Source of the DNA: Chlamydiota bacterium
GTDB lineage: Bacteria > Auribacterota > JACPWU01
Reading direction: 5' to 3'
NCBI GenBank assembly: GCA_016178055.1
Contig: JACOUC010000035.1
Span: 77,325-141,324 of the forward strand
DNA: 64,000 bases
Part shown: positions 26,191-48,116 of the stretch, one piece after another
Layout of the letters: each line of letters opens with the position of its first letter
How positions within the stretch are numbered: position 1 is the stretch's first letter
Position numbers and translations under genes: made by a program
The notes under the pieces: model-generated
Told to the model about the DNA's origin: nothing
Databases searched by the model: none
The model's input: the letters and a program-made list of their open reading frames with translations, nothing else

Positions 26191-26194
26191 AATA

Positions 26195-26863
26195 TTATTC
26201 CGCAATAAACCAATAATAATCGCCTGTATATCCGACTTCCTGAAAGAGTTTCTTCCAATCATTCACATGCATCATGGTTTCAGCGGTCAAAACCCATTTG
26301 TAAAGTTGTTCTTGCTCTTTTTCATTTCTCCAAGCATCCATGGTGATATAGCTGTGGCCACGGCTGACCCTCTGAATTTCTCTAAGGGCCTTCTTCAAAG
26401 GCTCAAGAGAAAGGTTGTGGATAGAATTGATAGAGATTACGAGATCAAAGCTTTTATCTGGAAAGGGTAAGCTTTCTGCACTCGCTACTTTAAGAAATGG
26501 TTTCACTGTAGGTATGGCGTGTTCAATGGCATATTCGCTCACGTCCACCCCTGCAACTTGGCATTCAGGCATGAGCTCTCTAAAATCATGCAACAAAAAT
26601 CCCTTTGCACATCCAATGTCTAAAACAGCAGCATTCTCTGGCAAACGATAATGATCGCGAAATCGTTTTGCGATATCTTTCCAACGCCCATCATATTTAT
26701 AGCCTCCATATCCCATCACACGAGGACCATCAAAAAACTCCCGACCAAATTGTTTAGCAATTCGGATAATTTCGGAAGTTTTCTCTTTGGCCCTTTGATC
26801 GTAATCACGAAGAGCTTTAGGGTGAGAATTTAAAAGATTAATTTCTGCCATCACGAAGGGCAA
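26195..26863 (-). CDS. Class I SAM-dependent methyltransferase.
   Basis: VLDIGCAKGF motif I. Confidence 0.8.
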   Translation of the reverse strand: MPFVMAEINLLNSHPKALRDYDQRAKEKTSEIIRIAKQFGREFFDGPRVMGYGGYKYDGRWKDIAKRFRDHYRLPENAAVLDIGCAKGFLLHDFRELMPECQVAGVDVSEYAIEHAIPTVKPFLKVASAESLPFPDKSFDLVISINSIHNLSLEPLKKALREIQRVSRGHSYITMDAWRNEKEQEQLYKWVLTAETMMHVNDWKKLFQEVGYTGDYYWFIAE

Positions 26864-26923
26864 TCCCTAATCCAAATAAACAATGCGCCATGGGTTCATA
26901 CCCGGTATGAACGACTTCATCAT

Positions 26924-27979
26924 TCATGACTTCTTCGCCTTTTCTACACCTTTGCTGAGCTCTTTTTCAAGCTCCTTAATCGCTGGAAAGCTTGATTTCA
27001 ATTTCTTCGGCAACGCATGCGTTAATTTATACTCTGATACCCCAATGGGTTTATGGATATCACTCATGGCATATTCTGCAACCAACTTATCCCGCCTCTT
27101 ACAAAGTAGAAGGCCGATTGTTGGGAGGTCCCCAACTTTACGCAACTGACTGTCCATCGCCTTGATATAAAAATTAAGTTTGCCAGCAAACTCCGGTTCG
27201 AAGTCCCCTGTTTTCAGTTCAACCACAACATAGCAATGCAAGCGAGTATGATAAAAAAGAAGATCTATAAAAAACTCTCGGTCCCCCACTTGAACAGGAA
27301 TTTGCCTGCCGATAAAAGCAAAACCGGCACCCAACTCCAGAAGAAAGCTCGTAAGATGATCTATGAGCTTATGTTCAAGCTCTCGCTCGCTAGAATCTGT
27401 AGACATGTTCAAAAAGTCAAAGATATAGGGATCCTTCAATGTTTGTTGAGCAAGATCGCCTTGGGGTTTAGGCAGCGTTAAATGAAAATTGCTAACGGCT
27501 TTCCCTTCCCGTTCAAAAAGACCGCTCTCTATCTGATGAACAAGAACGTTACGACTCCAATTATGCCTGATCGTGCCCTGCACGTAAAACATAGCTTCAC
27601 AGACGTCTTTGCATTTAGAGATAATGGCAATGTTATGTCCCCAGGGGATAGAGGTAATTTGGCCAACAACTTGTTGGCTAATTTGCTCTTCTTGGCTGTA
27701 AAATAAGTGCCACTGTTTGATATACTTTAAATTACTAAGTGAAAATCCTTTCATATCAGAAAATTCTGCCATCAAGTCCTTGCTGAGCCGAGGCAATAGA
27801 CCCTCTCCCCATTTTACGCTTTTTTGCCTGACAACAATATCCACGCCCATATCCCAATAAAGCTTTAACAGTTCAGTGTTTACACTGATCGCAGCTTTAA
27901 TCTGAGCACTGCGGACTCTCTTCTTAATATCCGAAAGCCAGGACTTGTATTCCTCGTCGCTCGTCAAATAATCTTTCAT
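26924..27979 (-). CDS. YhcG/DUF1016 family protein (PD-(D/E)XK nuclease-like C-terminus).
   Basis: FIDLLFYHTRLHCYVVVELKTGDFEPEFAGKLNFY matches the DUF1016 core. Flanked by ~50-bp direct repeats at 26871-26921 and 28033-28083. Confidence 0.8.
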   Translation of the reverse strand: MKDYLTSDEEYKSWLSDIKKRVRSAQIKAAISVNTELLKLYWDMGVDIVVRQKSVKWGEGLLPRLSKDLMAEFSDMKGFSLSNLKYIKQWHLFYSQEEQISQQVVGQITSIPWGHNIAIISKCKDVCEAMFYVQGTIRHNWSRNVLVHQIESGLFEREGKAVSNFHLTLPKPQGDLAQQTLKDPYIFDFLNMSTDSSERELEHKLIDHLTSFLLELGAGFAFIGRQIPVQVGDREFFIDLLFYHTRLHCYVVVELKTGDFEPEFAGKLNFYIKAMDSQLRKVGDLPTIGLLLCKRRDKLVAEYAMSDIHKPIGVSEYKLTHALPKKLKSSFPAIKELEKELSKGVEKAKKS

Positions 27980-28078
27980 ATTCTTAATGTCACAACCATC
28001 ATCGCTTTTTACGCATACAATCCAACACCGATGCCAAATAAATAATGGGCCATGGGATAATATCCTGTATGAACGACT

Positions 28079-28249
28079 TCATCGCCCATCATACCTATAG
28101 CCTCCGTATCCCATGATCCGAGGACCATCGAAAAATTCTGGTCCAAACTGTTTCGCAATTCGAATAATTTCTGGGGTCTTTTCCTTAACCCTTTGATCGT
28201 AATCCCGAAGGGTTTTAGGTTGGGAGTTTAAAAAATCAATTTCTGACAT
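28079..28249 (-). pseudogene. Remnant 5' fragment (56 codons) of the SAM methyltransferase gene, a duplicate of 26683..26863.
   Basis: Translation MSEIDFLNSQPKTLRDYDQRVKEKTPEIIRIAKQFGPEFFDGPRIMGYGGYRYDGR stops, whereas the intact gene reads MAEINLLNSHPKALRDYDQRAKEKTSEIIRIAKQFGREFFDGPRVMGYGGYKYDGRW. Confidence 0.6.
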
Positions 28250-28258
28250 TTGAAATTT

Positions 28259-30133
28259 CTATTTGACACGAGACGATTCCACAGAAAAATCTTTTAAGGA
28301 TATTTCCATGGGTTGAATCGTCATATTTTCAAGAAATTCTTTTCTTTCCAATAACGGATCTGCATCCTCATTGGGTCTCCCAAACTTCACTTGAGGAACG
28401 ACTCTTTCTTTGGAAGCAATTTCAACATTACAAAATACAGGACCTTTCGTCCTCAAAACCTCTTTAATACCATCTTCTAGTTGTTGAGTGCTAGAAAGGC
28501 AAACTGTCTTGTATCCATAAGCTTGTGCCACCTTTAAAAAATCAGGAAAAGCCAATCCTCCTTCAATAGAGGAGGCAAAATAATTTCCTTCTAACCATTG
28601 ATCCTGAGTTTGCTGAATCATGCTATAACCATGATTATTGATTAAAAAGATTTTAATGGGCAGTTGATAACGTAAAACGGTTGATAGCTCTTGGATATTC
28701 ATTTGCAAACTTCCATCTCCTGTCACACAAATTACAGATTTTTTTCCAAGCGCTAGAGAACCTCCTATGCTTGCTGGCAAAGCCCAACCCATCGCTGTAT
28801 TATTGCAATCATGATATAACCTTTGATCTGCTTTAAAATCAAATGCCTGCATCATCCAAGCTACAGCACAACCTGTATCTACAAACAAGGCGCTTCCTTT
28901 CTCGCAAGCTTGAGAAAGAGCTTTTACGAAAACATATGGATTAATTTCTTTTTGCCGATAATACTCGTCAGGACAAATAGGATACTTTTCTTTCCAGAAA
29001 GCAATTTGCTCTCTCCATGACGAGATATCACTTTTAGAGAAATTGACCATGTGCTGATTCAATTGTAATAAAAAATCCTTAGCATTTGCATGGATGAGTT
29101 GTTCTATTTTCAACCCAAACCTTTCAAATTTTTTTAATTCACTCAGATCAATATCGACAACTATTTTTTTGGCTGCCCTCGCAAAACTATAAGGAGGGCT
29201 TCCTGTGGCTTTTGTATCTAAACGCGTTCCTATCGCTAAAATTAAATCTGCATTTTGGACAGCAAAATTAGCGTATCGAGTCCCATGGGTTCCAAAGGTA
29301 CCGATTAAAAAAGGATAATCTGATTCAAAGAGATCTGCCATCGCCCATGTAGGAGCAACTGGGAAACCGAATTGCTCTACTAAATTTTTTGCTTCTTCCT
29401 CAGCTTTGGCCAAACGAACCCCCCATCCTAAAATAACCACAGGACGCTTGGCTTCTTTTAAAAGCTGCAGGCATTGATCGATATTAAAATTAGATTTTCT
29501 AGGAGCTTTTCCCTGATCCAAAACAAAAGGCTCAAGTAACGCTGGATTAATTTCCTCCCTTTGAATATTGTCGGGAATATCAATCACCACAGGTCCGGGT
29601 CGATCTGATTTTGCAATATGGCAGGCTTTTCCCAATTCATATCTTATTTTCATTGCATCGAGAATCTGTACAGCATATTTTGTGACGGATTTATAAATAC
29701 CAATCGTATCTGTTTCTTGAAAACCCATTTGTCGAACACCCGTATCTTTTTTCATTCTAAATGTCGAAACCTGACCTGTAATATAAATGACAGGTACAGA
29801 GTCATAATAGGCACAGCAAACTCCGGTCAGCATATTGGTAGCGCCAGGGCCACTTGTTGAAATGGCCGCTCCTAAATTCCCCGTAAGGCGAGAATACCCA
29901 TCAGCCGCCATGGCTCCTGCCTGTTCATGCTGAGGACAAATAAATTCAATACCTTCGGTTTCTGCAAGAGCATGAATGAGATGAAGGGAGGCGCCACCAG
30001 AAACAGCAAAAACATGGCGAATGCCCTGTTGGGCTAAAAATCTTGCGACATAATCAGAGAGCTTCATGCCAAGGCATCTCCAATTTAGATGTGATAAAAA
30101 GTGTTCCCTCACGATAACTGGTTGGCATGTCAT
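28259..30133 (-). CDS. Thiamine-diphosphate enzyme of the acetolactate-synthase/YerE family.
   Basis: N-terminal MKLSDYVARFLAQQGIRHVFAVSGGASL...GPGATN and a C-terminal ThDP-binding GDGS region. The probable start is the internal MKLSDY Met, at about 30067. Confidence 0.85.
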   Translation of the reverse strand: MTCQPVIVREHFLSHLNWRCLGMKLSDYVARFLAQQGIRHVFAVSGGASLHLIHALAETEGIEFICPQHEQAGAMAADGYSRLTGNLGAAISTSGPGATNMLTGVCCAYYDSVPVIYITGQVSTFRMKKDTGVRQMGFQETDTIGIYKSVTKYAVQILDAMKIRYELGKACHIAKSDRPGPVVIDIPDNIQREEINPALLEPFVLDQGKAPRKSNFNIDQCLQLLKEAKRPVVILGWGVRLAKAEEEAKNLVEQFGFPVAPTWAMADLFESDYPFLIGTFGTHGTRYANFAVQNADLILAIGTRLDTKATGSPPYSFARAAKKIVVDIDLSELKKFERFGLKIEQLIHANAKDFLLQLNQHMVNFSKSDISSWREQIAFWKEKYPICPDEYYRQKEINPYVFVKALSQACEKGSALFVDTGCAVAWMMQAFDFKADQRLYHDCNNTAMGWALPASIGGSLALGKKSVICVTGDGSLQMNIQELSTVLRYQLPIKIFLINNHGYSMIQQTQDQWLEGNYFASSIEGGLAFPDFLKVAQAYGYKTVCLSSTQQLEDGIKEVLRTKGPVFCNVEIASKERVVPQVKFGRPNEDADPLLERKEFLENMTIQPMEISLKDFSVESSRVK

Positions 30134-34760: not shown

Positions 34761-35603
34761 TTAAATTGGGACCGAGCTCTCATCATGTCTCTTCTGAAAA
34801 TGAAGCATCAAACTAAATTGTTCCTGCACAGACATTCCACCATCCATCACAATACATTGACCAGAAATATAGGATGCGTTGGGTGAACAAAGAAACAGCG
34901 CCGCATGAGCAACATCATCAGAACGCCCTGGCTGTCCCATCGGATGGCAAAATTCAACCAGTTCTCGATAACCTTGATTGTCATCTTGCCTATAACGATC
35001 AAGATCTTCATCCCGAATAATAACGCCAGGCAATAATGCATTAACTCGAACACCTTCTGCACCTCCTCGAACAGCAAAATAGCGAGTCATCTGAGTCAAT
35101 CCCACTTTCGCAATTTGATAGACAGGAGAAACTTCACGTGCAGAAAGCAGTCCTGTGATTGAACTGATGTTAACAATGCTTCCCCCGCCATTTTTTGCCA
35201 TTGTAGAAATAGCTGCCTGAGACGCAAAGAACGCAGCCCGAAGATTAACAGCCATTTCGAGATCCCAACTTTCTTCATCATCCGATTTGTCCCGAGAACG
35301 GACAGCCCTTGCATTATTCACCAAAACATCAATCTTTCCATAACTCCTGACAATCTGACGAATCATCTCTTGTGGTGTCCCCTTCTCACTTAAATCAACT
35401 TTCAAAAACGTAGAAGAGAGCTTTCGATCACGTAAATCTGTTACGGTTGTATGTCCCTCTTTATCATTGAGATCGCAGACAATAACCATCGCGCCTTTTT
35501 GAGCAAATGCATTAACAATGTTTTTACCAATACCTCGTGCGCCTCCTGTAACAGCAACTATTTTCCCTTCAAAAAGAGATAGAGAATCAGGCGTGATGGA
35601 CAT
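34761..35603 (-). CDS. SDR family oxidoreductase.
   Basis: VAVTGGARGIGKNI, NNAR and YQIAKVGL. Confidence 0.85.
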   Translation of the reverse strand: MSITPDSLSLFEGKIVAVTGGARGIGKNIVNAFAQKGAMVIVCDLNDKEGHTTVTDLRDRKLSSTFLKVDLSEKGTPQEMIRQIVRSYGKIDVLVNNARAVRSRDKSDDEESWDLEMAVNLRAAFFASQAAISTMAKNGGGSIVNISSITGLLSAREVSPVYQIAKVGLTQMTRYFAVRGGAEGVRVNALLPGVIIRDEDLDRYRQDDNQGYRELVEFCHPMGQPGRSDDVAHAALFLCSPNASYISGQCIVMDGGMSVQEQFSLMLHFQKRHDESSVPI

Positions 35604-35811
35604 ATTCCAAGGGCTCCTTTACAATTTGATCCCAATATTTTTCTATCCAGGCAACAACACCTCCAACACCTTCATTCAAAGAGATTTTATTTGACCATCC
35701 TAATGTCTTTCTCGCCTTCGTCGAATCAATCACATAAGCTTGATCTTGTCCCAAGCGCTCCGGTGCAACAACCGTAACATCCTCAAAAGATTTTCCTAAA
35801 ACAAATGTCAC
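35587..35811 (-). pseudogene. Orphan C-terminal fragment of an NDP-sugar 4,6-dehydratase/epimerase.
   Basis: ...VAPERLGQDQAYVIDSTKARKTLGWSNKISLNEGV... is a dehydratase C-terminus. A second copy of the same 3' end is found at 38272..38424. Confidence 0.55.
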
Positions 35812-36620
35812 GCAACCATTCGTGGGGGCTTATTTCCAGGAACAAGAAGCCTATTATTTTTTTTTAAAACCTTCAATTCATCAATGATAGGCGCCCAATA
35901 GATACGATCCCTTCTTCGTGATTCTTCTATTTCCAATGCCATTTCTTGAGAAGCCTCTTTAAGATGTACCGCTTTTCTATGATCCTGTAGCAATGCTTGT
36001 AAACACAGAGATAAGCATTTTCTAGAAAGATGTGCACCTATTGTTTTAGCTGTTTCATCCGACTGAAGGTAATCAAGTATATCCTCAACCTCAAAACTAT
36101 TTTTTAATATCCATTTCCAGTCATTCATTTTCAATTTTCTTTCAGAAAGATTCCTGGATTCGATTCGAACAAGATTTGAAATGATCGGGTAGTCTTCCAA
36201 ACGTCTCGTTTTTTTTATTTCCACCAAATCTCTTATTGCAACTACAGGAATTTTGCCCCAATCTGTCATTGGGTATTTTACACGCTTGAAAGAATCATCA
36301 TAATCCCCAACCCGAGGGGCTACTCCCATAACATCCAAAAACCAAAAAGGAATATTTTTGTCTTCATCTGGAATCTGAAAATGAAAACCATGCCCTTGAG
36401 AGATCCATTTCATTGAAATGGGCGGCGTTAATTTGTATATCACTGCACCCACACTTCCAAGCACCTTTAGAAATCTGTTCCAGTTCTCTTTCACTGGTTG
36501 AACCCACAGATCAATATCTTCTGAAAAGGTGGCGGCTCCATAAATCACAGAAGCCTGCCCGCTAATCAACATATAAGAAACGCCTGAAATATTAAGGTCT
36601 TGGAAAAATCTTTTTATCAT
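35808..36620 (-). CDS. Nucleotidyltransferase-like hypothetical protein (paralog family A/B/C, with 47300..48082 and 53349..53939).
   Basis: ISGQASVIYGAATFSEDIDLWV resembles a minimal NTase G[GS]...D.D motif. IPVVAIRDLVEIKKTRRLEDYPI is shared with 47300..48082. Confidence 0.5.
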   Translation of the reverse strand: MIKRFFQDLNISGVSYMLISGQASVIYGAATFSEDIDLWVQPVKENWNRFLKVLGSVGAVIYKLTPPISMKWISQGHGFHFQIPDEDKNIPFWFLDVMGVAPRVGDYDDSFKRVKYPMTDWGKIPVVAIRDLVEIKKTRRLEDYPIISNLVRIESRNLSERKLKMNDWKWILKNSFEVEDILDYLQSDETAKTIGAHLSRKCLSLCLQALLQDHRKAVHLKEASQEMALEIEESRRRDRIYWAPIIDELKVLKKNNRLLVPGNKPPRMVA

Positions 36621-36894
36621 GGATTTCCTCTATGTTTTTGAGTCTTAGGCGAAGCGCACAAGAACGGCGAAGCCTTCCTCGAGCCGTCATTTTCTGCCAA
36701 GCAGTTCTCTGAAATGTCCCAATAAGCGATTCATTAAGGTATATCATTTTTCTCATGTTTTGAATTACTCGTCCCTGCTTTAATTTACGAGACAGTGTTT
36801 CGTGAATTGAAGCAATTCTGGATAACACCCAAAGGTTTAAGACGACTCTTATCCACCGCCACTCCTTTTCGGCTTCTTATCCCGTCAAGACCGA

Positions 36895-37077
36895 TCAAAG
36901 TGCTTCATGAATGATGGGGTCCATTGACTTACTAAGTTTCGCCAGCATCCAAAGGTCTTTAGAAGTGGCGACCGAATTAACGCGAATGTTTCCAAATTCC
37001 AATGTTTCGGACAGCAGTTGGGTTCTTAAGAAGAAAATATATTTGGCACGGTCATAGGGCTGTTTAAAATCCATCAA
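36895..37077 (-). CDS. Small hypothetical ORF with an ATGA overlap to the YhcG stop.
   Basis: 60-aa ORF only. Weak. Confidence 0.25.
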   Translation of the reverse strand: MMDFKQPYDRAKYIFFLRTQLLSETLEFGNIRVNSVATSKDLWMLAKLSKSMDPIIHEAL

Positions 37078-38108
37078 TTTTTCATCTCCTCTAGAAGCTG
37101 GCTTTTCAGTTCTTTTTCAGGAGGTAAAATTTTCTTAAGATCTGATGGAATTTTATTTGTTAAATGATATTGAGACACACCCATAGGGTTCTTAACACTT
37201 CGAAGGGCATATTCTACAACGATATTTTTCTTCTCGGCGCAAAGGATAATACCAATGGAAGGATTTTCATCTTTGAAACGCACTTTATCATTCAATAAAT
37301 GAAGATAAAAATCCATTTTCCCTGCATATTCAGGCTGAAATTTTCCTGTTTTCAGCTCAATGGCAACAAGGCATTTGAGCTTTCGGTTAAAGAAAAGCAA
37401 ATCTATGAAATATTCTTCCCCGTCTATCTCAAGCCGGTATTGATTACCGATAAATGAAAACCCGGCACCAAGCTCAAGAATAAAATGTTTCATTTTTTCA
37501 ATAAGCCGTTTTTCAAGCTCCCGCTCCACAAAAGGTCTGGTTATCCCAAGAAAATCAAGGTTGTAGACGCTTTTAAGTGATTCATCGGCCTGTTCTGCCA
37601 AATATGCTGGTAAAACTTTCTCGTAATTGTGTTGTTTTTTCTTCAAGTGGAGTCGATAGGCATCAGCTTTGATTTGATTCAAAAGAACATTTCTTGACCA
37701 TCCTAATTTGGATGATTCGTTAATATAATATTCCCGTTCTTTGAGATCCTTAATTTTCTGCATAATAAGAATATTATGACCCCATGGAATTTCTGGCACA
37801 AGCTGTGCCAGTTTTACATCATCCTTGTATTCAAGATAAAACATTCGCATCCGCCATAGATTATCCGGTGAAAAGCCTTCCAAACTTGGATACTCACGGT
37901 TAAGGTCATGGGATAATTGTTCAACAACCCTTTGCCCCCATTTATATTTTTCCTGGCGCTCAACAATGCTCTTGCCAATATCCCAGTATAGTTTAATAAG
38001 ATCTTTATTAATCGAGCGTGCGGAACCAATGCGGGCAGAAACAATGCGTGATTTGATTTCATGCAGGAATTGACCATAGGCTTTTGAAGTGATCTCGCCA
38101 GATTTCAT
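37074..38108 (-). CDS. YhcG/DUF1016 family protein, second copy.
   Basis: FIDLLFFNRKLKCLVAIELKTGKFQPEYAGKMDFY. About 45% identical to 26924..27979. Confidence 0.8.
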   Translation of the reverse strand: MKSGEITSKAYGQFLHEIKSRIVSARIGSARSINKDLIKLYWDIGKSIVERQEKYKWGQRVVEQLSHDLNREYPSLEGFSPDNLWRMRMFYLEYKDDVKLAQLVPEIPWGHNILIMQKIKDLKEREYYINESSKLGWSRNVLLNQIKADAYRLHLKKKQHNYEKVLPAYLAEQADESLKSVYNLDFLGITRPFVERELEKRLIEKMKHFILELGAGFSFIGNQYRLEIDGEEYFIDLLFFNRKLKCLVAIELKTGKFQPEYAGKMDFYLHLLNDKVRFKDENPSIGIILCAEKKNIVVEYALRSVKNPMGVSQYHLTNKIPSDLKKILPPEKELKSQLLEEMKN

Positions 38109-38271
38109 TCAAATACTCCTTGATTTCCCATAAATGCGAAGGTACATTCGTCCTTCACCCCCAGATGTTTCGTCCAGCTAATTTCTTCAACCAGTGGTTG
38201 GAGATTTGCGTTTTTTTGACATGCATCATCTCCTGCTTCAGACACATCACTCATAATCAGATTTTTGAAAT

Positions 38272-38940
38272 TAGGGCTTGTGAACATAATCCAAAGGCTC
38301 CTTCGTAACTTGATCCCAAAATTGATCAATCCAATTCACAACCCCTTTAAGACCTTCTTCGAGAGAAATTCTTGAAGACCACCCTAAAGTTTTCCTCACT
38401 TTTGTCGAATCAATCACATAAGCTTTATCTTGTCCCAAAGGCAGCGTAGGGAGTCGAGGGATTCATGGGAGAAGTCTCTGTCACATTCCCCTCACAGGTT
38501 CCATAAACCTCGGGAGAAGAAATATGTACATATCGCTTCAAATATTTCTTATCTTTGAGATGATGAATTAATTGCGCCAAGGCCACGGTATTGGTCTGAA
38601 ACCAATGATGAGGATTTTCCCAACTTGGAGCCACTTCGCTTTGCGCTGCAAAATTAACGATGTATTCTGGCTGAAACTGATCCAAAGTTTCTAAAATACG
38701 CGACATGTCTTTATTAAAATCCAATTGATGAAATTTAAAATTCCCATTTACAGAGTGGCGTTTATAGGGCAAAAAAAGCTCCGTCTTTTCTGGAGAACGG
38801 CTCGCCCCCATCACTTCGAAACGCCCTTCCTCTAAAAGCAAATCTATAAAATCACTTCCAGAGAAAGAATTGCTTCCAAGGACTGCAACCTTTTGTCTTC
38901 TGTGTTCTGTCTTCTGTATTCTGTCTTCTGTATTCTGCAT
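38272..38940 (-). pseudogene. NDP-sugar 4,6-dehydratase gene with a large internal deletion and frameshift.
   Basis: The N-terminal 171 codons (VLGSNSFSGSDFIDLL...PYAA) stop at 38425. The C-terminal ~45 codons (LGQDKAYVIDSTKVRKTLGW...) continue in another frame, and about 130 central residues are absent. Confidence 0.6.
38893..38940. repeat. Imperfect 7-bp (CTGTNTT) / 14-bp tandem repeat, ~3 x 14 bp, at the 5' end of the dehydratase pseudogene.
   Basis: ttgtcttctgtgtt ctgtcttctgtatt ctgtcttctgtatt ctgcat read directly from the sequence. Confidence 0.6.
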
Positions 38941-38942
38941 TT

Positions 38943-39839
38943 TTAAAAAGGCCCTCGAAACGCAGGATCTGGAACATCCAAATGAATCGCCGAGAACGGA
39001 ATCTCCTCTTCAAGATGATCTCTTTGAAACATTTCACGTGTTGCTGCAACCATCTCAGTGGCTCGGGGATAAAATCGTTTTGCGAGAGTGGGCGTCGTAG
39101 GAGTGGGGACATCTGGAAGGGCAACGCGTTTTGGAGCACATTTGAGTTCGTTCATGGCTTTTTCAGCAACCAAGGCAATAATCTCTGCAGAAGCTCCAAA
39201 AGATTTCCAGCTCGTATCTGCAACAATTAATCGTCCTGTTTTCCGCACTATATTGTGCAGCCATCGATGCTCAATAAAAATGACAGGATTATTGTCCTCA
39301 ATGCTTGAAATCAAAAGGCCCTTTGCATCATAAGGAGTGACCGGCATGACCACTTTCAAACCTGGCACATGTGCAAACCAAGACTGAAGGCTTTGTGAAT
39401 GCTGAGGCCCTTGCCCCCAACCTCGACCTATAATTAAGCGAACTACCAAGGGAACATGGGCTTCGCCTCCAAACATGTAATGCCATTTAGCGGCCTGATT
39501 CACCATTGGCTCCATGGCAAGCATGGCAAAATCAATTCGCTGATGCGTTAGAATCGGTCTCATCCCCACAAGGGCTGAACCGATCGCAACGCCCGTCATC
39601 CCATTTTCTGAAACGGGCATATCCATCACACGCCCATTTCCAAACTTTTCTTGTAGGCCTGAAGTCGTCCCAAAAATACCTTTCGGATCCGGCACTCCCA
39701 ATCCCATGATATAAACGCTCGGATTGCTCTCCATGCAAAGCGTGGTCGCTTCGCGAATGGCTTCAAAAAATTTAAGTTCTCTAGGCATAGACATTCTCAT
39801 AAAGCGCTGATTCTTCTGGAAAAGGACTTTGTTTAGCAA
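38943..39839 (-). CDS. Pyruvate/2-oxoacid dehydrogenase E1 component, beta subunit (transketolase-like).
   Basis: Pyrimidine-binding domain (PVSENGMTGVAIGSALVGMRPI). The probable start is at MSMPREL. Confidence 0.85.
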   Translation of the reverse strand: MLNKVLFQKNQRFMRMSMPRELKFFEAIREATTLCMESNPSVYIMGLGVPDPKGIFGTTSGLQEKFGNGRVMDMPVSENGMTGVAIGSALVGMRPILTHQRIDFAMLAMEPMVNQAAKWHYMFGGEAHVPLVVRLIIGRGWGQGPQHSQSLQSWFAHVPGLKVVMPVTPYDAKGLLISSIEDNNPVIFIEHRWLHNIVRKTGRLIVADTSWKSFGASAEIIALVAEKAMNELKCAPKRVALPDVPTPTTPTLAKRFYPRATEMVAATREMFQRDHLEEEIPFSAIHLDVPDPAFRGPF

Positions 39840-40746
39840 ATTGAACCGATCCTTCTACCTCATCATCAATCAATTTTGCCATTTGATTTAATTCTTCTTC
39901 CGTAATACTGTTTTCGTTTAGTAATTTTTTTCGGAAATTTTCAAGAGGACATTTCTTTTTCCAAATTTCAAATTCTTCAGGCGTTCGATAACCCAAGTCA
40001 TTGTCAAAATTTGGACCGCAATGCTCGCGCCAGCGGTAGGTCGTAAACTCAAGAAAAGAGGGGCCTTTGCCTTCACGTGCCTTCTGAATGGCTTTTTGGG
40101 CAAGCGTAAAAACCGCCACGACATCATTGCCATCCGCTTTATGGCTTTCAATGCCGTACCCGCACACCAGTTCAAAAACTTCACGATTTTCGGGCTGGCG
40201 AACTTCCAGAGGCGAATAGACAGAATATAAATTATTTTCACAAATAAAAATCACCGGCAGTTTTTTCAAAACAGCAAAATTAATACTCTCATGAAACACA
40301 CCTTCTTCAGTCGCCGCCTCTCCAAAGAAAACCGTGGTCACACGAGATTCTTTTTTCATTTGAGTCCCCAAGGCGGCTCCAACCCCAATAGGAATCGTAC
40401 TTCCCACAATGGGCGTAGACCCCAGAAAACCAACTGAAAGATCAATCAAATGCATGGACCCGCCCTTACCTTTTGAGCAGCCCGTCCCCTTTCCATAAAG
40501 CTCCGCCATCATTTTTCTAAGATCCCCACCCTTAGCTAAATAATGGCCGTGAGCACGATGACCGCTCATCGCATAATCTCCCTGGGTCAACGCCTGACAA
40601 ACACCGACAGCAACGGCTTCCTGACCAATACAAAGATGTATCGGACAACGCATTTCCTGTTCTGGATAAAGCTCCGCAATCTTTTCCTCGATTTTGCGAA
40701 TGCGGAGCATTTGGTAGTATAGTTTTTTTAGAATTTGGACTTCCAT
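39781..40746 (-). CDS. Pyruvate/2-oxoacid dehydrogenase E1 component, alpha subunit (ThDP-binding).
   Basis: IHLCIGQEAVAVGV and GKGGSMHL motifs. Confidence 0.85.
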   Translation of the reverse strand: MEVQILKKLYYQMLRIRKIEEKIAELYPEQEMRCPIHLCIGQEAVAVGVCQALTQGDYAMSGHRAHGHYLAKGGDLRKMMAELYGKGTGCSKGKGGSMHLIDLSVGFLGSTPIVGSTIPIGVGAALGTQMKKESRVTTVFFGEAATEEGVFHESINFAVLKKLPVIFICENNLYSVYSPLEVRQPENREVFELVCGYGIESHKADGNDVVAVFTLAQKAIQKAREGKGPSFLEFTTYRWREHCGPNFDNDLGYRTPEEFEIWKKKCPLENFRKKLLNENSITEEELNQMAKLIDDEVEGSVQFAKQSPFPEESALYENVYA

Positions 40747-40807
40747 AGGGTAATAAGAGTGAGTGGTTATTGGTGAGAGGTACTTTTACCACTCACCACT
40801 CTACCCC
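40747..40807 (-). promoter_or_regulatory. Conserved leader element immediately upstream of the E1-alpha start (copy b).
   Basis: GAGTGAGTGGTTA...ACCACTCACC inverted repeat plus a CCCCTCACC block, shared with 26113..26190. Confidence 0.4.
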
Positions 40808-41797
40808 TCACCTCAACTGCATTTTTTGCATGGTCTTAATATTGTAGTAGCGTGGGTCCGTCATAGAATCAGGAATTTTGTTTGCTTGAAATGCTTCAAC
40901 CAAATCTCTCACCGCATCCTCAATCGTATGCTTTGGAATAAATCCCAATTCTCTTTTAATTTTTTCTGAAGAAACATGGTAAGACCGATTGTCGTCCGTA
41001 GGTGTTGTCACCACCTTTACATCTTGGCCCACAATTTTCTTCACCATTTGAGCAATGTCCATCACCTTGCGGTTGTCATAACCTGCGTTAAAAATTTTTC
41101 CATCTATTTTTTCATCCGGCCATTCTAAAGACTTCACATAGAGGTCTGTCATGTCTTCAATATGAATATTAGGACGAAGTTGATCCCCTCCAAAAACCTT
41201 AATCACCCGATTCGTAAAGGCATGATTGGTTAAAATATTTACGGTTAAATCTAAACGTAAACGCGGAGAATAGCCACAAACCGTTGCGGGTCTTAAAATC
41301 AAGGTGACAAAATCTTTTGTTCTCTCTTTGAGCAAAACCTCTTCGCACAACGCCTTATATTTTGAATAATCCGTGAGGGGCATGAGAGGTAAATCCTCTG
41401 TTACATCTCCTTCTTTAATTCCATAAACGCTGGAAGAAGAAGCATAAACAAATCGCTTCACGCCACTTTCTTTAGCAATTTTGACAAGATGAACAAAGGC
41501 ATCATAATTGATGGATTTTCCTAAAGCGGGATCCAATTCAAAACTGGGGTCGTTGGAGATACAAGCCAAATGAATCAGGGCATCTGCGCCTGGCACTGTC
41601 TTCTTCAAAAGAGCCTGATCTCTGATATCTCCCTTGATGATTTCTAGATTAGAATGATTTTTGACAGAATCAAAAACATGATCTCCATAGATGAAAAGAT
41701 CAATCACTTTAACACGATACCCCCTGCCTAAAAGCTTAGGAACAAGAACCGACCCCACGTATCCGGCACCGCCTGTGATATAAACTGTTTGGATCAT
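40808..41797 (-). CDS. NAD-dependent epimerase/dehydratase (extended SDR).
   Basis: VYITGGAGYVGSVLV and a YxxxK region. Confidence 0.85.
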   Translation of the reverse strand: MIQTVYITGGAGYVGSVLVPKLLGRGYRVKVIDLFIYGDHVFDSVKNHSNLEIIKGDIRDQALLKKTVPGADALIHLACISNDPSFELDPALGKSINYDAFVHLVKIAKESGVKRFVYASSSSVYGIKEGDVTEDLPLMPLTDYSKYKALCEEVLLKERTKDFVTLILRPATVCGYSPRLRLDLTVNILTNHAFTNRVIKVFGGDQLRPNIHIEDMTDLYVKSLEWPDEKIDGKIFNAGYDNRKVMDIAQMVKKIVGQDVKVVTTPTDDNRSYHVSSEKIKRELGFIPKHTIEDAVRDLVEAFQANKIPDSMTDPRYYNIKTMQKMQLR

Positions 41798-41798
41798 A

Positions 41799-42179
41799 CT
41801 ATTTCACTAACGCGTGAGGAAAATTTGGACTTTCCGGGTTAACCACAAGCTTGCGATGAGCGGGGGATACGATTAAATCCATATCCTCCATGGGCACAGC
41901 TCCCAACAGAACTTCATCACCTATCACAAGGGCCCCAACAAAACAATTACGATTCTCAAATATTACCTCTACAGGTCCAACATACGAAACCAGATGCCGT
42001 TTTCCGTCAGCAGTCGTCACTTCCCTTTTGTTATTTTCCTCGAGCTTCAACTGCAACGCAACATGTTCCGGAATACAAAGCGTTAAGGCGCCTGTATCCA
42101 CCATGGCCTTTGTTAATACCACCTTTAACTTTGGCAACCGTGGATTTTTAAGTTGAATTTCTGCATGGATATAACCCAT
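41799..42179 (-). CDS. Retropepsin-like (clan AA) aspartic protease domain protein.
   Basis: VDTGALTL D-T-G-A catalytic motif in a 126-aa protein. Paralog of 48917..49279. Confidence 0.55.
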   Translation of the reverse strand: MGYIHAEIQLKNPRLPKLKVVLTKAMVDTGALTLCIPEHVALQLKLEENNKREVTTADGKRHLVSYVGPVEVIFENRNCFVGALVIGDEVLLGAVPMEDMDLIVSPAHRKLVVNPESPNFPHALVK

Positions 42180-42257
42180 AGTATCCCCTTCTCAGACAGA
42201 CCAATTCTACCATTTATCCAAAAAACTTCGAATCTTTTCGGATAAAAGAGATGAACG

Positions 42258-43841
42258 TTATTTCAAAAGGGTTTCCATACTTTTCAGGAGTCCAATCTTC
42301 GAAATGGCCAGCCCTGTCCCCATGACACCCACCTTTTCAGCCGCCGCAAGATTACCGAGCAGCAAGGAAAGATCGGTAGGAAGGCCTCCTCCAAAGCAGG
42401 CAGACGTAATCCCGAGCAACGTGTCTCCAGCCCCAATACGGTCCACCACTTTATTTGCAAAGGGTGGACAACTTAAGAAACCCTCTTCTTCCCGATAAGC
42501 CAAAGCCCCTTTCACACCTCTGGTCATGACAACGGTTTCACATCCCATCCGGCGATAAAGTTGTTCAACCAGAACTTTTTCATCCTTGGTTCGTGTTCTA
42601 TATTCATGACGCAATTCCCCCTCGTGAATACAAACATAATCTGCTCGGGGATATTTTGAAATGGTGTGATAACCAATGTTAGAAGCATTTACCTGAGTAT
42701 TAACAGCTAAAAATTTTTTCTCCTTCATTAAAAACTCTACAATCTTCTCTGAAATTAAGCCATGCCCATAGTCTGCCACAATGATAAGGTCATGATCTGG
42801 TAAATGCTGCTTCAATTTTGAGAGAAGAACATCTTCTTCATCACTTGTGATCAGTTCATCATTGATTTCATAAACTCCGAAAAGCTTAGACTTCGTATAA
42901 GCATCCACATAACGCGTTTTCACAAGAGTCGGGGAATTGGATTTTGTGATGCAATCTAGATGAACATTGGGTTTCAGATGATTTAAAACAAAATCGTTTC
43001 GATCTCGAGTATTGCCCTCATAACTCGCAATGGTGATTTTCTGGCAAAAATCTGACAGGTGATTCGCGATCGCTAACACGCCCCCTGCATAAGCCTCTGT
43101 TTGAAGTTTTTGCATGACCAGCATCGGTTCTTTTGCAGACTTCCCAATGGCATTACAAAAAACATATTCATCTATAATGGCTTCACCGATTAAAAGAACT
43201 CTAAGACTGGATAATTGGCTCAAATATTCTCTAATGGCCTGGGAAGAATATTTCCCTTTGATCCGATCGAGATACTCCATTTGCTCTCTCGTATAAAGGG
43301 GAAAATGCTGATTTAAAAGAGCTGACGAGCTAAACGTAACATCATTCGTATACCGAATTTCTCCATTCACAAAGCGTACCGACTCCTCTTCGAGGCCAAT
43401 CATCCCCGTCACATCCTTTTGATGATCGCGATAGTCAGGCCCCTTTACATAAATATGAGGCTTCAAACACCGAATCGTTTCCACTGCGGTAGGCCATTCG
43501 TTGATGGCCACGTGATCAACAACATCTAAACTGGCGATCATTTCTGCGCGATGGTCCTGCGTAAAAACCGGGCGCATCGGACCCCTATTCACAAATCGGT
43601 CAGGCGTTAACGTGACCACCAAAATATCTCCCATGGCCTTGGCCTCTTTAAAATATCGCAGATGTCCCACATGTAATAAATCAAAGACTCCATGGCAGTG
43701 AACGATTTTTTTATCTTGCAAACGAAGGGCTTCAAGCTCTTGCGCTAAAACATCAAGGGTTTTAATTTTTCCATCTTTCAGTTGTAACATAAACTTATCC
43801 ACGGAGATGATCTTGAATACAATCTGCAATTTTCGAAACAA
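42258..43841 (-). CDS. Bifunctional sugar nucleotidyltransferase / PfkB-family kinase (HldE/RfaE-like, but with domain order reversed).
   Basis: N-terminal cytidylyltransferase-like HxGH (CHGVFDLLHVGHLRYF) and C-terminal ribokinase-family DRIGAGDTLLG. Confidence 0.8.
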   Translation of the reverse strand: MFRKLQIVFKIISVDKFMLQLKDGKIKTLDVLAQELEALRLQDKKIVHCHGVFDLLHVGHLRYFKEAKAMGDILVVTLTPDRFVNRGPMRPVFTQDHRAEMIASLDVVDHVAINEWPTAVETIRCLKPHIYVKGPDYRDHQKDVTGMIGLEEESVRFVNGEIRYTNDVTFSSSALLNQHFPLYTREQMEYLDRIKGKYSSQAIREYLSQLSSLRVLLIGEAIIDEYVFCNAIGKSAKEPMLVMQKLQTEAYAGGVLAIANHLSDFCQKITIASYEGNTRDRNDFVLNHLKPNVHLDCITKSNSPTLVKTRYVDAYTKSKLFGVYEINDELITSDEEDVLLSKLKQHLPDHDLIIVADYGHGLISEKIVEFLMKEKKFLAVNTQVNASNIGYHTISKYPRADYVCIHEGELRHEYRTRTKDEKVLVEQLYRRMGCETVVMTRGVKGALAYREEEGFLSCPPFANKVVDRIGAGDTLLGITSACFGGGLPTDLSLLLGNLAAAEKVGVMGTGLAISKIGLLKSMETLLK

Positions 43842-44179
43842 TCTTCATGCATTGGATACAAACCCTCTCGTCTGGCTCGAAGTTTGGAAGGACACTGCTG
43901 AGAGGATATTTTGATGGAAGATAAATCGAAATCTAGTAAATCACATTCATCTTCGGAAACAACTATTTCTTTTCCTGCTTTTCTAAGCAACATTATTAAT
44001 TCATGTATGTTATGAGTCTTCTTTAAACCCATCGACAATTCTATACACAACGCCTTGAGATATTTTTCTGAAGATTGTTGTAAGTTTTGAAGACAGGGGT
44101 TGTAAAGATGGCTTTTAAGCAATATCTTTGCTGCCTCAAGATTCTCTTCAGCATATTTGGAGCCAATCATGAGTTTCAT
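43778..44179 (-). CDS. HEPN-domain protein (toxin-like partner of the upstream nucleotidyltransferase).
   Basis: 133-aa helical protein with a KKTHNIHEL R/K-x4-6-H-like motif, overlapping the MNT gene by 4 nt. Confidence 0.55.
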   Translation of the reverse strand: MKLMIGSKYAEENLEAAKILLKSHLYNPCLQNLQQSSEKYLKALCIELSMGLKKTHNIHELIMLLRKAGKEIVVSEDECDLLDFDLSSIKISSQQCPSKLRARREGLYPMHEDCFENCRLYSRSSPWISLCYN

Positions 44180-44481
44180 CGTTCATAGACAATCTCCCCC
44201 CTATTTATTTCCGATAAAAAGAAATCATTTTGTACATGGGGTCTTACCGGGATGATGTCTACAGCGATTTTAAGAAGCACAGGACGTATTTGCTTTCTAT
44301 ATTTTAAAGCTAGTTGTAGATATGATTTGTTGCTGCTTTGAAATATTGCTACATCCATGTCATGCGGATTTTCTGATTTTAAAAATGAACCAAATATAAC
44401 AATACGCTGAATCTCTTTGTCGGATGAAAGACAGGAAACAAGTTCTTTCGTCAATTCTTTTTTTAAAGGGGCCGTAAACAT
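44176..44481 (-). CDS. Minimal nucleotidyltransferase (MNT) domain protein.
   Basis: IVIFGSFLKSENPHDMDVAIF (GS...D.D). Confidence 0.7.
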   Translation of the reverse strand: MFTAPLKKELTKELVSCLSSDKEIQRIVIFGSFLKSENPHDMDVAIFQSSNKSYLQLALKYRKQIRPVLLKIAVDIIPVRPHVQNDFFLSEINRGEIVYER

Positions 44482-44543
44482 ATTTTTCTAATCCACGTTT
44501 GCCAAAAATTACTCCATTCTCCTAAAACAAACTTCCTAATCTG

Positions 44544-45580
44544 TTAACCCAGATGCTTAAACCAATCTTTCGTCGCAACTTCAATAGAATCTTTATCCCA
44601 GAGCGGGGCATCCCGCCACGCGTCAATGTGATCCAGCATGATGCGAACACCCTTTTGAAAGGAAACTTTGGGTTGCCAGTGTAAAATCCGCTTTATTTTA
44701 TTGATATCCGCAAAGGTACAATTGGGTTCTCCAGGTCGTTTGGGAATATGAATCACATCCCCGCCCAATAATTCTACCAACTCGTTCACACGATAAGTAT
44801 TCCCAGACCCCACATTAAAAATCTCGCCTGACACATTTGATTCGGCTGCCCGAAGAAGTGCATCCGCTACATCCGTGACAAAAGTAAAATCTCTGGTTTG
44901 ATTACCATCTCCCACAACGGTGAAGGGTTTCCCCGCTAATTTCTGGGCCAGAAAAACACCAAAAACCGCCCCATAAGTTCCTGTTGTCCTAGACCGAGGA
45001 CCATACACATTAAAAAATCGAAGAGAAACGGCAGGCATCTTGTAAGTCTTCTCCCAGTGAAGCACATATTGTTCACCCAAATATTTGGTTAAAGCATAAG
45101 GGTACATCGGTCGAATCGGCGCCGTTTCTGGCGTAGGATATTGATCGGGAATTCCATAACAAGAAGAAGAAGCTACGTAGATAAAGCGTTTGACACCTGA
45201 CAAGCGTGCTGCCTCTAAAACGGAGACTGTTCCATCGACATTTGATCGATGATATTTGAGAGGTTCTTGAATTGAAGGGACAATATCAGCCAAGGCAGCT
45301 AAATGAAAAACCCAGTCTATGTTTTGAAATAAAGGCCTTATGTCAATCACATTTTCGACACCCATTTTATAAATCTTTAGCCCGCATTTCTCATCAGATT
45401 TCGTCGCGAGAGCGCCGAGTCCGCTTTGGATGCGAGGAAGACGACCGAGGCCATGCGAGGCATACTTTACAGTATGTTGAGCGTGGCCGACCGAGTCTGA
45501 CGAAGCAGACGAGGCGGAAGCAGACGTTCGACCAGATGACTTCCGATAAAACCAGCTCCTCCTGTAACCAAGCAACGCAT
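44544..45580 (-). pseudogene. NAD-dependent epimerase/dehydratase gene disrupted by a truncated copy of the MITE-like element.
   Basis: ATG at 45580 gives MRCLVTGGAGFIGSHLVERLL, then runs into the element and hits TAA. The rest of the protein (KIYKMGVENVIDIRPLF...HLAA...YxxxK...) is in a different frame, and about 35 residues of the Rossmann region are replaced. Confidence 0.6.
45378..45520. mobile_element. Truncated second copy of the MITE-like element (left terminal inverted repeat present, right one absent).
   Basis: tagcccgcatttctcatcagatttcgtcgcgagagcgccgagtccgctttggatgcgaggaagacgaccgaggccatgcgaggcatacttt... is about 90% identical to 6680..6820. Confidence 0.55.
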
Positions 45581-45581
45581 C

Positions 45582-46940
45582 TTAATAAACTCCCTCAACA
45601 GCTGTTCTCTCACCGAGAAAATCTGTACTCCAAGCTAGACGAGGTCGAACAGTACCACACCATCTCCCATAATATTCTTTCCTCATTTCACCTGTATCGT
45701 GAACATTAAATGACAGAACATAATCTTGAAGAATTTGTGTATCCGAAATCCCTTTACCAATAATGGCCGCAATACTATAGAGTCCTTCATTTAAAAAATT
45801 ACCGGGTATGATACATACAGTCTGAAACAGACCCACCGGATAAGGTTGTCCGCTCCATGGGTCTTCGGTCAATGAAATGGATCTATGATTACTAGAAGAA
45901 AGAACGTAAGTTCCGACCGGATCTCGTAGCCAAATTGCTGCATACAATTTTGTTTGCGATTTCAAATTCCAATAGGTAATCTCAATTCGAATTTCCTTCG
46001 ATATATCTACATCTGCCGTAGGTCCTTCCACCCCATCCTGAAAAATTCGTACTGAATGAAGACGAACAAGGTCATTCCCGGGAGCATTCGCAACATCTGG
46101 CCAAACCATCTCTCCTCCTAAAGAGCGAGCCACGGCCAGATACTCCTGAACAACTTCAGCGGCAGATCCATTTTTAACCACTTCTCCTTCTTTTAAGAGA
46201 AGAGCTCTCGGGCACAAATTCATAATGCTCGGCATATTGTGAGATACAATCACAACCGTGCGCCCCTCTTTCGCAACATCCCCCATTTTTCCCAAACACT
46301 TCTTCTGAAATTCGGCGTCGCCAACAGCAAGAACCTCATCCACCAAAAGCACCTCAGGCTCCAGATGTGCCGCAACAGCAAACGCTAACCGCACATACAT
46401 TCCGCTTGAATAGCGTTTGACAGGCGTATCGATAAACTTCTCCACTTCAGCAAAAGCAACAATTTCATCAAATTTTCTTCGAATTTCGATTCGTTTCATC
46501 CCCATGATCGCGCCATTGAGAAAAATATTTTCTCGCCCCGTAAGCTCTGGATGGAAGCCCGTCCCCACTTCCAAGAGGCTTCGAACACGACCGTGAATTT
46601 CCGCCCTGCCCTCTGTGGGCTCTGTAATGCGGGAAAGAATTTTGAGGAGCGTACTTTTCCCGGCGCCATTGCGACCAATGACACCAACGACCTCGCCTTG
46701 CTTGATTTCAAAAGAGACATCTTTCAACGCCCAAATTTCATTATCGTTCAAAGGTTCAAAGGTTGAAGAGTTCAAAGATTTTCCAAAGTTCTGTAATCTT
46801 CTGATCTTCGAGTTGGCGAAACGAAAAGGGGCTGTAGCAAGCTGCGTTAAACGATCGCGAAAACTATAGTAACACTCCCGCTCCCCAATTTTGTAGAGCT
46901 TCCCTACATTTTCAACCCGAATGGCGATGTTGTCAGACAT
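45582..46940 (-). CDS. wzt: O-antigen/polysaccharide ABC exporter ATP-binding protein (Wzt-like, with a C-terminal glycan-binding extension).
   Basis: Walker A GRNGAGKST, signature SGM, Walker B LLVDEVLAVGD, and a ~200-aa C-terminal beta-rich domain. Confidence 0.85.
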   Translation of the reverse strand: MSDNIAIRVENVGKLYKIGERECYYSFRDRLTQLATAPFRFANSKIRRLQNFGKSLNSSTFEPLNDNEIWALKDVSFEIKQGEVVGVIGRNGAGKSTLLKILSRITEPTEGRAEIHGRVRSLLEVGTGFHPELTGRENIFLNGAIMGMKRIEIRRKFDEIVAFAEVEKFIDTPVKRYSSGMYVRLAFAVAAHLEPEVLLVDEVLAVGDAEFQKKCLGKMGDVAKEGRTVVIVSHNMPSIMNLCPRALLLKEGEVVKNGSAAEVVQEYLAVARSLGGEMVWPDVANAPGNDLVRLHSVRIFQDGVEGPTADVDISKEIRIEITYWNLKSQTKLYAAIWLRDPVGTYVLSSSNHRSISLTEDPWSGQPYPVGLFQTVCIIPGNFLNEGLYSIAAIIGKGISDTQILQDYVLSFNVHDTGEMRKEYYGRWCGTVRPRLAWSTDFLGERTAVEGVY

Positions 46941-46970
46941 AAGTTATTGTTAAAAGTCTAGGAATACTTT

Positions 46971-48110: not shown

Positions 48111-48116
48111 ATCTTT

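Follow-up and report, generated by a model that had tools for sequence, protein, structure and literature searches.

A YhcG-bearing insert between two diverged copies of a dehydratase gene end in a Chlamydiota glycan locus, and a probable contig join within the dehydratase gene itself

The stretch of DNA analysed here, which we refer to throughout as the window, comprises 64,000 nucleotides from a Chlamydiota bacterium (GenBank assembly GCA_016178055.1, contig JACOUC010000035.1, positions 77,325 to 141,324 of the forward strand) and contains an NDP-sugar 4,6-dehydratase gene that appears to be broken. On the minus strand, which carries all of the genes described for 34761..39839, the N-terminal part of this gene is followed by a short copy of its 3' end, then by a YhcG gene (YhcG2), small open reading frames (ORFs) and a gene for a nucleotidyltransferase-fold protein (NT_A), and finally by a longer copy of the dehydratase 3' end. 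We consider that this arrangement is best, and probably correctly, explained by the combination of a contig-join artefact inside the dehydratase gene with a real, YhcG2-bearing insert that has come to be flanked by two dehydratase alleles through recombination. A first-pass annotation, made from the sequence alone, had described the ORFs between the two C-terminal copies, all of which are present in the ORF list and agree with Pfam, and had read them as an island that splits the dehydratase gene. This last point does not hold, as the accessory insert, of 2.46 kb, starts downstream of the stop codon of the upstream copy (38271..38273).

The 5' part of the dehydratase gene occupies 38439..38940 (codons 1-167) and ends at a scaffold join; as an ORF it reads on to codon 171 (38425..38940) and its product, identical to the NCBI protein P0001 from a Chlamydiae metagenome-assembled genome (MAG), matches the Pfam profiles GDP_Man_Dehyd (1.7e-25, profile positions 3-155 of 332) and Epimerase (1.6e-21). 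The genuine 3' end of the gene, with its stop codon, is found in a different frame as a 55-codon ORF (38271..38438), which forms the upstream copy of the repeat and matches positions 302-330 of the 332 in the GDP_Man_Dehyd profile. Intact homologues have 331 residues and are ~80% identical to the N-terminal piece. In their numbering the N-terminal piece stops at A156, the short C-terminal copy covers residues 277-331, beginning at L277, and the long copy begins near residue 258, leaving the central stretch S157-R276 absent from the window: ~120 residues or ~360 nt, slightly less than the ~130 residues estimated in the first-pass annotation.

Three sources of sequence were used to examine the junction at 38438..38439. 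L089 is the corresponding locus of a related Chlamydiae species (GCA_016178005.1), syntenic with the window at 79-85% nucleotide identity, against a background of ~81%; the sister MAG (GCA_016196915.1), though fragmented, agrees with the window at 100% identity across more than 35 kb; and the Logan assembly provides independent k=31 contigs from SRR12113417. To the right of the dehydratase junction the window and L089 match perfectly from 38438 to 38298, exactly 141 nt, before they first differ at 38297. A second junction of the same kind lies 0.8 kb upstream, at 39249..39250 within an E1-beta/transketolase-like gene (38943..39839), and to its right there is again a perfect match of exactly 141 nt (39249..39109). 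Beyond each of these matches the identity drops abruptly to background, and all other exact matches between the two loci in the syntenic region are of 92 nt or less.

The length of 141 nt is that of the largest default k-mer of MEGAHIT. Where two populations have a segment in common, a contig running out of that segment in a de Bruijn graph takes the final k bases of it as its own beginning, which is the pattern found here. The name 'k141' appears in contig names of the same accession batch, and the source study used MEGAHIT with default settings followed by the IDBA-UD scaffolder, keeping scaffolds longer than 1 kb. The other assemblies behave in the same manner. In the Logan assembly a k=31 contig has its start at 38327, 30 nt (k-1) from the first mismatch, 38297. 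Contig 2 of the sister MAG (JACPWT010000002.1) terminates exactly at window position 38438, and no sister sequence crosses the junction; contig 1 (JACPWT010000001.1) spans window positions 49052..39152, and contig 58, beginning at 48912, overlaps it by 141 nt. At the E1-beta junction sister contig 1 contains 210 nt (70 codons, encoding part of the Transketolase_C domain) that the window lacks, and in L089 the gap is smaller, ~129 nt, and ends at the same position on the right. The right breakpoints are thus common to the window and L089, the left ones differ by 12 nt in the dehydratase and by ~81 nt in E1-beta, and neither junction shows microhomology.

Since the offsets of 141 nt and 30 nt depend on k and would be unexplained by a real deletion, we take both junctions to be contig joins: the one in the dehydratase is very probably a join of two abutted MEGAHIT k=141 contigs and not a deletion. 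Most likely, a short unitig shared with the co-occurring relative was dropped between the two contigs, and the same happened 0.8 kb upstream in E1-beta. It follows that the dehydratase is probably intact in the organism, with ~346 codons, and that the annotated E1-beta protein of 298 aa is artefactually short. The out-of-frame fusion of the N-terminal ORF to the short C-terminal copy, to which the first-pass annotation had drawn attention, does stand in the deposited sequence but, given the k=141 signature, it very probably does not exist in the organism and has no biological meaning.

A true pseudogene, in which a rearrangement linked to the island had removed ~120 central codons and fused the N-terminus out of frame, would account for the junction without Ns in the deposited record, where NCBI annotates the 171-aa product P0001, and it would be in keeping with L089, whose dehydratase is likewise broken-looking and almost identically arranged (ORFs of 154 and 55 aa in succession), and with the lack of any intact copy of the gene in our searches. 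We nevertheless regard it as very improbable. It would leave to coincidence the interspecies identity over exactly k nucleotides at two junctions 0.8 kb apart, the end of the sister contig at the same base and the start of the k=31 contig 30 nt from the same mismatch, and it has to contend with the 210 nt that the sister MAG retains at the companion junction and with the lack of microhomology at both. The position of a genuine deletion would be independent of assembly parameters, and here it is not; in L089 the right breakpoint is the same and the left one is 12 nt away, a pattern that would be expected of contig joins. A recent deletion, polymorphic in the population, had been considered on the strength of the sister contig end and the 210-nt difference, and was dropped on the exact offsets of 141 nt and 30 nt.

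An intact, near-identical dehydratase was sought in a set of 5.8 billion proteins, using as queries the concatenated N- and C-terminal parts, both C-termini and the N-terminus alone, and none was found; the search returned only the truncated P0001, P0121 and the truncated P0148 of a relative, and its word prefilter seemed to favour lengths like that of the query. Two exact-pattern scans of JGI metagenomes, with the end of the N-terminal part and with the shared 141-nt segment, gave 0 hits, and look-ups by exact identity for the 171-aa ORF, P0001 and the E1-beta ORF yielded no record. At its N-terminus the dehydratase of the window has a low-complexity extension of 15 residues, QNTEDRIQKTEHRRQ (38895..38940), which a 14-nt tandem repeat encodes; the L089 dehydratase is without this extension, and in another Chlamydiota homologue (P0092) the N-terminal repeat is of another kind, (KDAQHQ)n.

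The practical consequence is that the deposited MAG and its NCBI annotation would contain two spurious internal deletions, one giving the 171-aa 'dehydratase' and the other the shortened E1-beta, and any inference drawn from it on pseudogenes, gene decay or the glycan pathway would be mistaken. Such joins can be flagged cheaply, and without reads, by the k-offset test, in which the length of exact matches to a co-occurring relative is compared with k and the contig ends of a sister assembly are inspected.

In contrast to the junction, the second copy of the dehydratase 3' end is real. It is the remnant of a second dehydratase allele (35587..35825), which comprises the last 72-74 codons and the stop codon and appears in the ORF list as an ORF of 74 codons (35587..35811), as the first-pass annotation had reported; it matches positions 296-329 of the 332 in the GDP_Man_Dehyd profile and is annotated by NCBI as HYS07_05025. 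In the window, the sister MAG and the Logan assembly, which are three assemblies made with two different assemblers, the sequence from 38438 through the neighbouring short-chain dehydrogenase (SDR) gene is contained in single contigs, and the long 3' copy and all junctions of the island are identical in the three; both are therefore real. The SDR gene (34761..35603; Pfam adh_short_C2, 6.5e-54) starts inside the last codons of the remnant, and the stop codon of the remnant overlaps the ATG of the SDR gene (ATGTCCATCACGCCTGA, read from the sequence), an arrangement that befits a natively coupled pair. A similar overlap, without an insert, links the dehydratase stop codon of L089 to the next glycan gene, though that next gene differs from the SDR gene of the window.

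Alignment of the two 3' copies (35597..35754 and 38281..38438) over 158 nt shows that they are the same gene end, with 76.6% nucleotide identity and 74% amino acid identity over 53 codons; the match of the downstream copy to the homologues extends further, to ~220 nt from around residue 258, in an open frame. With identities this low the copies are not a fresh duplication, and a recent duplication of the dehydratase 3' end, which was one of the candidates considered, is ruled out by the 77% nucleotide identity. The claim that this locus has the same duplication-of-neighbour signature as the first YhcG island of the window is therefore borne out in that two 3' ends bracket the insert, and has to be modified in that these ends are diverged. 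The 53 codons contain no indels or stops and the differences fall 12/7/22 on the three codon positions, with non-synonymous and synonymous rates (dN and dS) of 0.205 and 0.854 and a dN/dS of ~0.24.

The YhcG2 gene (37074..38108) encodes both of the domains that define the YhcG/DUF1016 family, PF17761 and PF06250, each well above its curated Pfam threshold: YhcG_C at 2.2e-61 (206.8 bits, cut-off 32.5) and DUF1016_N at 2e-45 (154.7 bits, cut-off 32.8). PADLOC also recognises it, as PDC-S02 (7.9e-137, 454 bits), a family that it lists only as a candidate system. On these profile matches YhcG2 is predicted to be a PD-(D/E)XK nuclease and is a candidate single-gene phage-defence protein. It is 41% identical to YhcG1, the YhcG protein of the first island (26924..27979), and its nearest relatives among the GTDB representatives searched, from Smithella, Elusimicrobia and Omnitrophota, are only 76% identical; these representatives do not include the genome of the window itself. 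DUF1016 is mentioned in earlier papers solely as a passenger of mobile elements that resembles restriction endonucleases (PMC4316617), and in the papers found to name PDC-S02 it seems, from titles and abstracts, to be listed simply as one of the defence systems detected.

Between the dehydratase stop codon and YhcG2 lies a spacer (38109..38270, nominally 'orf74'), in which 30-40 nt at ~38180..38208, encoding 'QPLVEEISWTKHL', match six cyanobacterial YhcG genes, in each case at the same position within the gene (blastn, E down to 8e-6). This stretch looks to be what is left of a different YhcG allele that occupied the site before, which would point to replacement having occurred repeatedly. It had been proposed to check whether the spacer resembles the repeats of the first island; comparison of the spacer and of the downstream part of the island with those repeats (26100..28300) gave only 8-12-mers at the level expected by chance. 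On the other side of YhcG2, and overlapping its stop codon, is an ORF of 59 codons (orf60, 36895..37074), residues 2-34 of which align with residues 1-33 of two proteins of 1118 and 1122 aa (E 0.012-0.03 in a set of 145 proteins). These proteins, which contain the domains Eco57I, TaqI_C and N6_Mtase, directly follow YhcG in two close relatives (L012 and L013). The match is weak but position-specific, and orf60 may thus be the N-terminal relic of an Eco57I/MmeI-type restriction-modification (R-M) gene that once followed YhcG.

The remainder of the insert is occupied by NT_A (35808..36620) and by an ORF of 78 codons (orf78, 36592..36828) which overlaps its start. NT_A has 270 aa and aligns end to end (residues 1-269) with a homologue of the same length, so that it is full length. 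Its family profile matches PDB entry 8an4, of the MenT1/AbiEii family (E 2.3e-5), and its AlphaFold model (pLDDT 97.4) finds TM1012, MenT1, LnuA and ANT(2'') as best Foldseek matches, with a TM(target) of 0.61 for MenT1 and 0.56 for TM1012. G21, D35 and D37, in the G-x-x...D-x-D active-site region, are nearly invariant in the family alignment, and a paralogue at 47300..48082 is 27% identical. There was no match to Pfam AbiEii. In fold and similarity NT_A is, as judged from the profile and the model, a full-length nucleotidyltransferase similar to the MenT1/AbiEii-type toxins, and orf78, by its position, could be its antitoxin partner. Neither orf78 nor the spacer 'orf74' matched a family in Pfam, NCBIfam or PADLOC, and the same three collections revealed no integrase, recombinase or transposase domain in 35808..38270, the YhcG domains being the only ones found.

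To place YhcG2 in a wider context, we examined the neighbourhoods of its relatives (49-76% amino acid identity) at 80 loci from many phyla. Homologues of orf74, orf60, orf78 and NT_A were absent from all 80 (E 1e-4), and the island is hence not a conserved module. The commonest neighbours were type I (HsdM, HsdS) and Eco57I-type R-M genes and the rest were diverse, as in the LigT-YhcG-RecA order of Smithella; a dehydratase-like gene lay within 10 kb at only 3 of the 80 loci. The suggestion in the first-pass annotation that YhcG genes travel on a module that targets glycan-locus genes is not supported by this census, which rules out such targeting. The more general idea of a recombining YhcG element fares better, since mobility through recombination, with a piece of a neighbouring gene travelling along, is what the flanking sequences of the relatives indicate.

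Imperfect direct repeats (20-194 nt, 75-100% identity) within 400 bp on both sides of the gene were found for YhcG at 25 of 73 testable loci, compared with 13 of 240 control ORFs of 250-450 aa from the same loci (odds ratio 9.1, Fisher p = 2e-9). The inserted unit is usually the YhcG ORF alone with roughly 10-90 nt on each side, mostly tens of nucleotides, and the repeats consist of the 3' end of the upstream gene or of the 5' end and leader of the downstream gene; the sites used are all different. In seven cases other than the present island the differences between repeat copies, when pooled, fall 32/15/75 on the three codon positions, with a dN/dS of 0.13. We took an omega of 0.55 as a rough expectation for a duplication followed by decay of one copy, that is for one selected and one neutral lineage, and the pooled cases reject this value (p = 2.5e-9). 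As the differences are mostly synonymous, the copies look like two alleles rather than in-place duplicates, and the simplest reading is one of divergence in separate genomes, with YhcG bringing along part of the gene that stood next to it before. Direct evidence of such hitch-hiking comes from the Eco57I relic behind YhcG2. Some remnants (L039 and L026) carry a stop or a frameshift and are therefore not functional today. Taken together, these comparisons make recombination-based mobility of YhcG genes, with a piece of a neighbouring gene travelling along, well supported.

Two further YhcG loci may be described alongside these. In island 1 of the window (26682..28249) the first 56 codons of a methyltransferase gene (26195..26863) are repeated upstream of YhcG1. 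In the orientation of the genes the order of the repeats is a'-b'-YhcG1-b-a, with a standing for the first 56 codons of the methyltransferase and b for a leader of 50 nt, and not the a'b'...ab expected of a tandem type; a and a' differ at 6/3/23 sites by codon position, and the order indicates one event nested within another. Position 27257, inside YhcG1, is where the Logan k=31 contig with its start at 38327 comes to an end, which hints that the sample contains a second variant of the population or a k-mer shared within YhcG1. L089 contains a third YhcG gene (310..1329 of that locus), inserted with the precision of the ORF between an ERCC4-like gene and an ABC-transporter gene, for which positions 46968..46973 of the window represent the empty site. 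Only ~6-7 nt (ATGAAA) are duplicated there, which shows that not all YhcG insertions carry long repeats.

From these observations a route to the present arrangement can be proposed. Foreign DNA that contained the 3' part of a dehydratase gene together with accessory genes would have recombined into the resident dehydratase-SDR junction. One crossover would have used the homology within the dehydratase, and the other end would have been joined illegitimately ~220 nt before the resident stop codon, either by homology-facilitated illegitimate recombination or, equivalently, by the 'ends-in' (Campbell-type) integration of a circularised fragment. The product would be a complete upstream gene with an imported 3' end, followed by the cargo and then by the displaced resident 3' end, still coupled by its stop/start overlap to the SDR gene that it originally preceded. 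That the remnant has been kept is probably due to the ribosome-binding region and start codon of the SDR gene, which lie within it. What recurs is the outcome, in about a third of the YhcG2 relatives; the recombination route, and any role of the YhcG nuclease itself in promoting the event, are what we infer from it.

A number of observations weigh against this explanation. For the present island alone, the raw counts reject only an omega of 1 and not one of 0.55 (p = 0.13), and its repeats are not adjacent to YhcG2, lying 163 nt away upstream and 1.26 kb away, with other cargo between, downstream; the duplication may accordingly belong to another cargo gene or to a swap of glycan cassettes. 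Some of the 25 positive loci are not independent, the three from Smithella representing one insertion. No empty-site genome with the order long-type dehydratase, SDR, radical SAM was found. With regard to the dehydratase junction, the contigs are abutted without Ns and the join is not traceable to a specific step of the scaffolder, and the missing ~360 nt have been deduced rather than seen, no intact copy having turned up in the protein database or the JGI metagenomes.

The 3' remnant might instead be the scar of a glycan-cassette swap unrelated to YhcG, in which a foreign block (dehydratase, SDR, radical SAM and so on) was imprecisely joined at the boundary between the conserved and variable parts of the locus, and YhcG, the nucleotidyltransferase and other selfish genes accumulated later in the dead space. 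The window and L089 are indeed syntenic until 25 nt before the dehydratase stop codon and unrelated downstream of it, and across ~1.1 kb (39356..38298) their identity rises from ~81% to 88-100%, as would be expected of a recent exchange at this boundary. On these comparisons the end of the dehydratase gene looks like a recombination hotspot, with a recent interspecies tract at the conserved/variable border of the glycan locus. The distance of the repeats from YhcG2, the relics of several unrelated acquisitions within the insert and the toxin-antitoxin-like pairs scattered through the whole locus also fit a swap. A swap through dehydratase homology would leave no remnant, however, and an illegitimate join would still be needed; moreover, the same bracket is found at YhcG1 and at a third of the YhcG relatives, far above the controls. 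We regard this alternative as unlikely, though it deserves to be taken seriously. A true 'long target duplication', by contrast, in which the insertion itself duplicated ~220 nt in place, for example by the filling-in of staggered breaks, and the copies diverged afterwards, seems to us improbable. It has the merit of a published description for R-M and solitary mcrA genes (PMC2853133), direct repeats do tightly flank YhcG in many genomes and some pairs are still 93-98% identical. The third-position bias of the pooled cases is incompatible with one copy drifting neutrally, however, the copies at island 2 are 23% different and yet contain no indel or stop, and orf60 indicates that YhcG2 came with a piece of its previous neighbour, as expected of the transfer of a fragment and not of precise transposition.

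A bolder extension of the recombination reading is that YhcG/DUF1016 genes are autonomous, homing-like selfish genes. The nuclease would cut the conserved end of a gene in a naive genome; a donor with YhcG would then serve as the template for repair, through which both the ORF and the donor form of the gene end would be copied in, the resident end being left as a displaced remnant. We put this forward tentatively and think it rather doubtful. If true, it would explain how nuclease genes come to be inserted with 'long target duplication', for which a mechanism has long been missing, and it would mean that YhcG genes drive recombination where variable loci, this glycan cluster among them, meet their surroundings.

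The wider locus (42000..58000) is a glycan/heptose cluster, with an hldE-like gene (42258..43841), an SIS/GmhA-like gene near 54212..54865 and epimerase genes. Pairs of selfish type occur throughout this region: Polbeta/HEPN (43778..44481), PhdYeFM/PIN (near 48117..48800), DUF4160/DUF2442 (near 49400..49760) and two NTP_transf_2/HepT pairs (54862..55789 and 56961..57658). L089 has instead a HicAB pair between E1-beta and the dehydratase. An element of ~140 nt with inverted termini is present at 45378..45519 and at 6680..6821, the copies being 95% identical; the first of them interrupts the 5' end of an epimerase ORF (44544..45575) directly after the GxGxxG motif, and at the edge of the element the window has 15 extra nt (GTCGAACGTCTGCTT) relative to the sister MAG. 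It may be a small element resembling miniature inverted-repeat transposable elements.

Several known phenomena invite comparison with the features of this locus. The dehydratase and E1-beta junctions resemble the de Bruijn-graph mis-joins of scaffolded metagenomes, in that contigs start k (141) or k-1 (30) nt from the first differing base, a short shared unitig is omitted and a sister assembly breaks at the same base; they differ in that the contigs here abut without Ns. As regards the insert, prophage e14 and phage 21 integrate into icd with a substitute 3' end, using a site-specific integrase and a defined att core. There too the incoming element supplies a diverged 3' end, the gene remains whole and the displaced end lies at the far side of the insert, but the insert in the window encodes no integrase and the sites of the YhcG relatives all differ. 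Homology-facilitated illegitimate recombination, which combines one homologous anchor with an illegitimate join, and Campbell-type integration, a single crossover with a circle, likewise leave foreign DNA beside a conserved gene with a partial direct duplication made up of donor and recipient alleles; these are general routes, however, and not properties of a gene family. Free-standing homing endonuclease genes share with YhcG a compact nuclease ORF between host genes, a patchy distribution across phyla and travel with host flanks, whereas homing is a clean allele replacement without partial duplications.

The closest parallel is the insertion with long target duplication described for R-M genes, with a solitary mcrA nuclease gene as a related case (Furuta, Abe & Kobayashi 2010, PMC2853133; see also Nobusato et al. 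2000, as cited in PMC2853133). In both settings one or a few nuclease-type genes are inserted without a transposase or integrase, between direct repeats that are unique to each site, measure tens to hundreds of bp and often extend across the stop or start of a neighbouring gene, and such flanking repeats are significantly commoner than for average genes. The description of Furuta et al. has direct repeats of more than 30 bp, as in the 158 nt found here (up to ~220 nt in the downstream copy), and an insert shorter than 20 kb without a mobility gene, as in the 2.46 kb of this island. It also has both R and M genes, where we find a solitary PD-(D/E)XK gene of the YhcG/DUF1016 type, not a recognised R-M system, with a 59-codon relic of Eco57I type, and copies that are identical at the start and of which one decays neutrally, where the dN/dS is 0.24 at this island and 0.13 in the pooled cases. 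The repeats of the YhcG genes are more diverged (75-98%, and 77% at this locus), mainly at synonymous sites, the empty site of the present island was not found, and island 2 has other cargo between YhcG and one of the repeat copies. YhcG/DUF1016 proteins, which are common and uncharacterised nucleases of defence islands, are thus bracketed in many phyla by two alleles of the end of a neighbouring gene. This would place YhcG with the restriction-type mobile nuclease genes that show 'long target duplication', and suggests that repeats of this type are recombination scars containing donor sequence and were not made at insertion.

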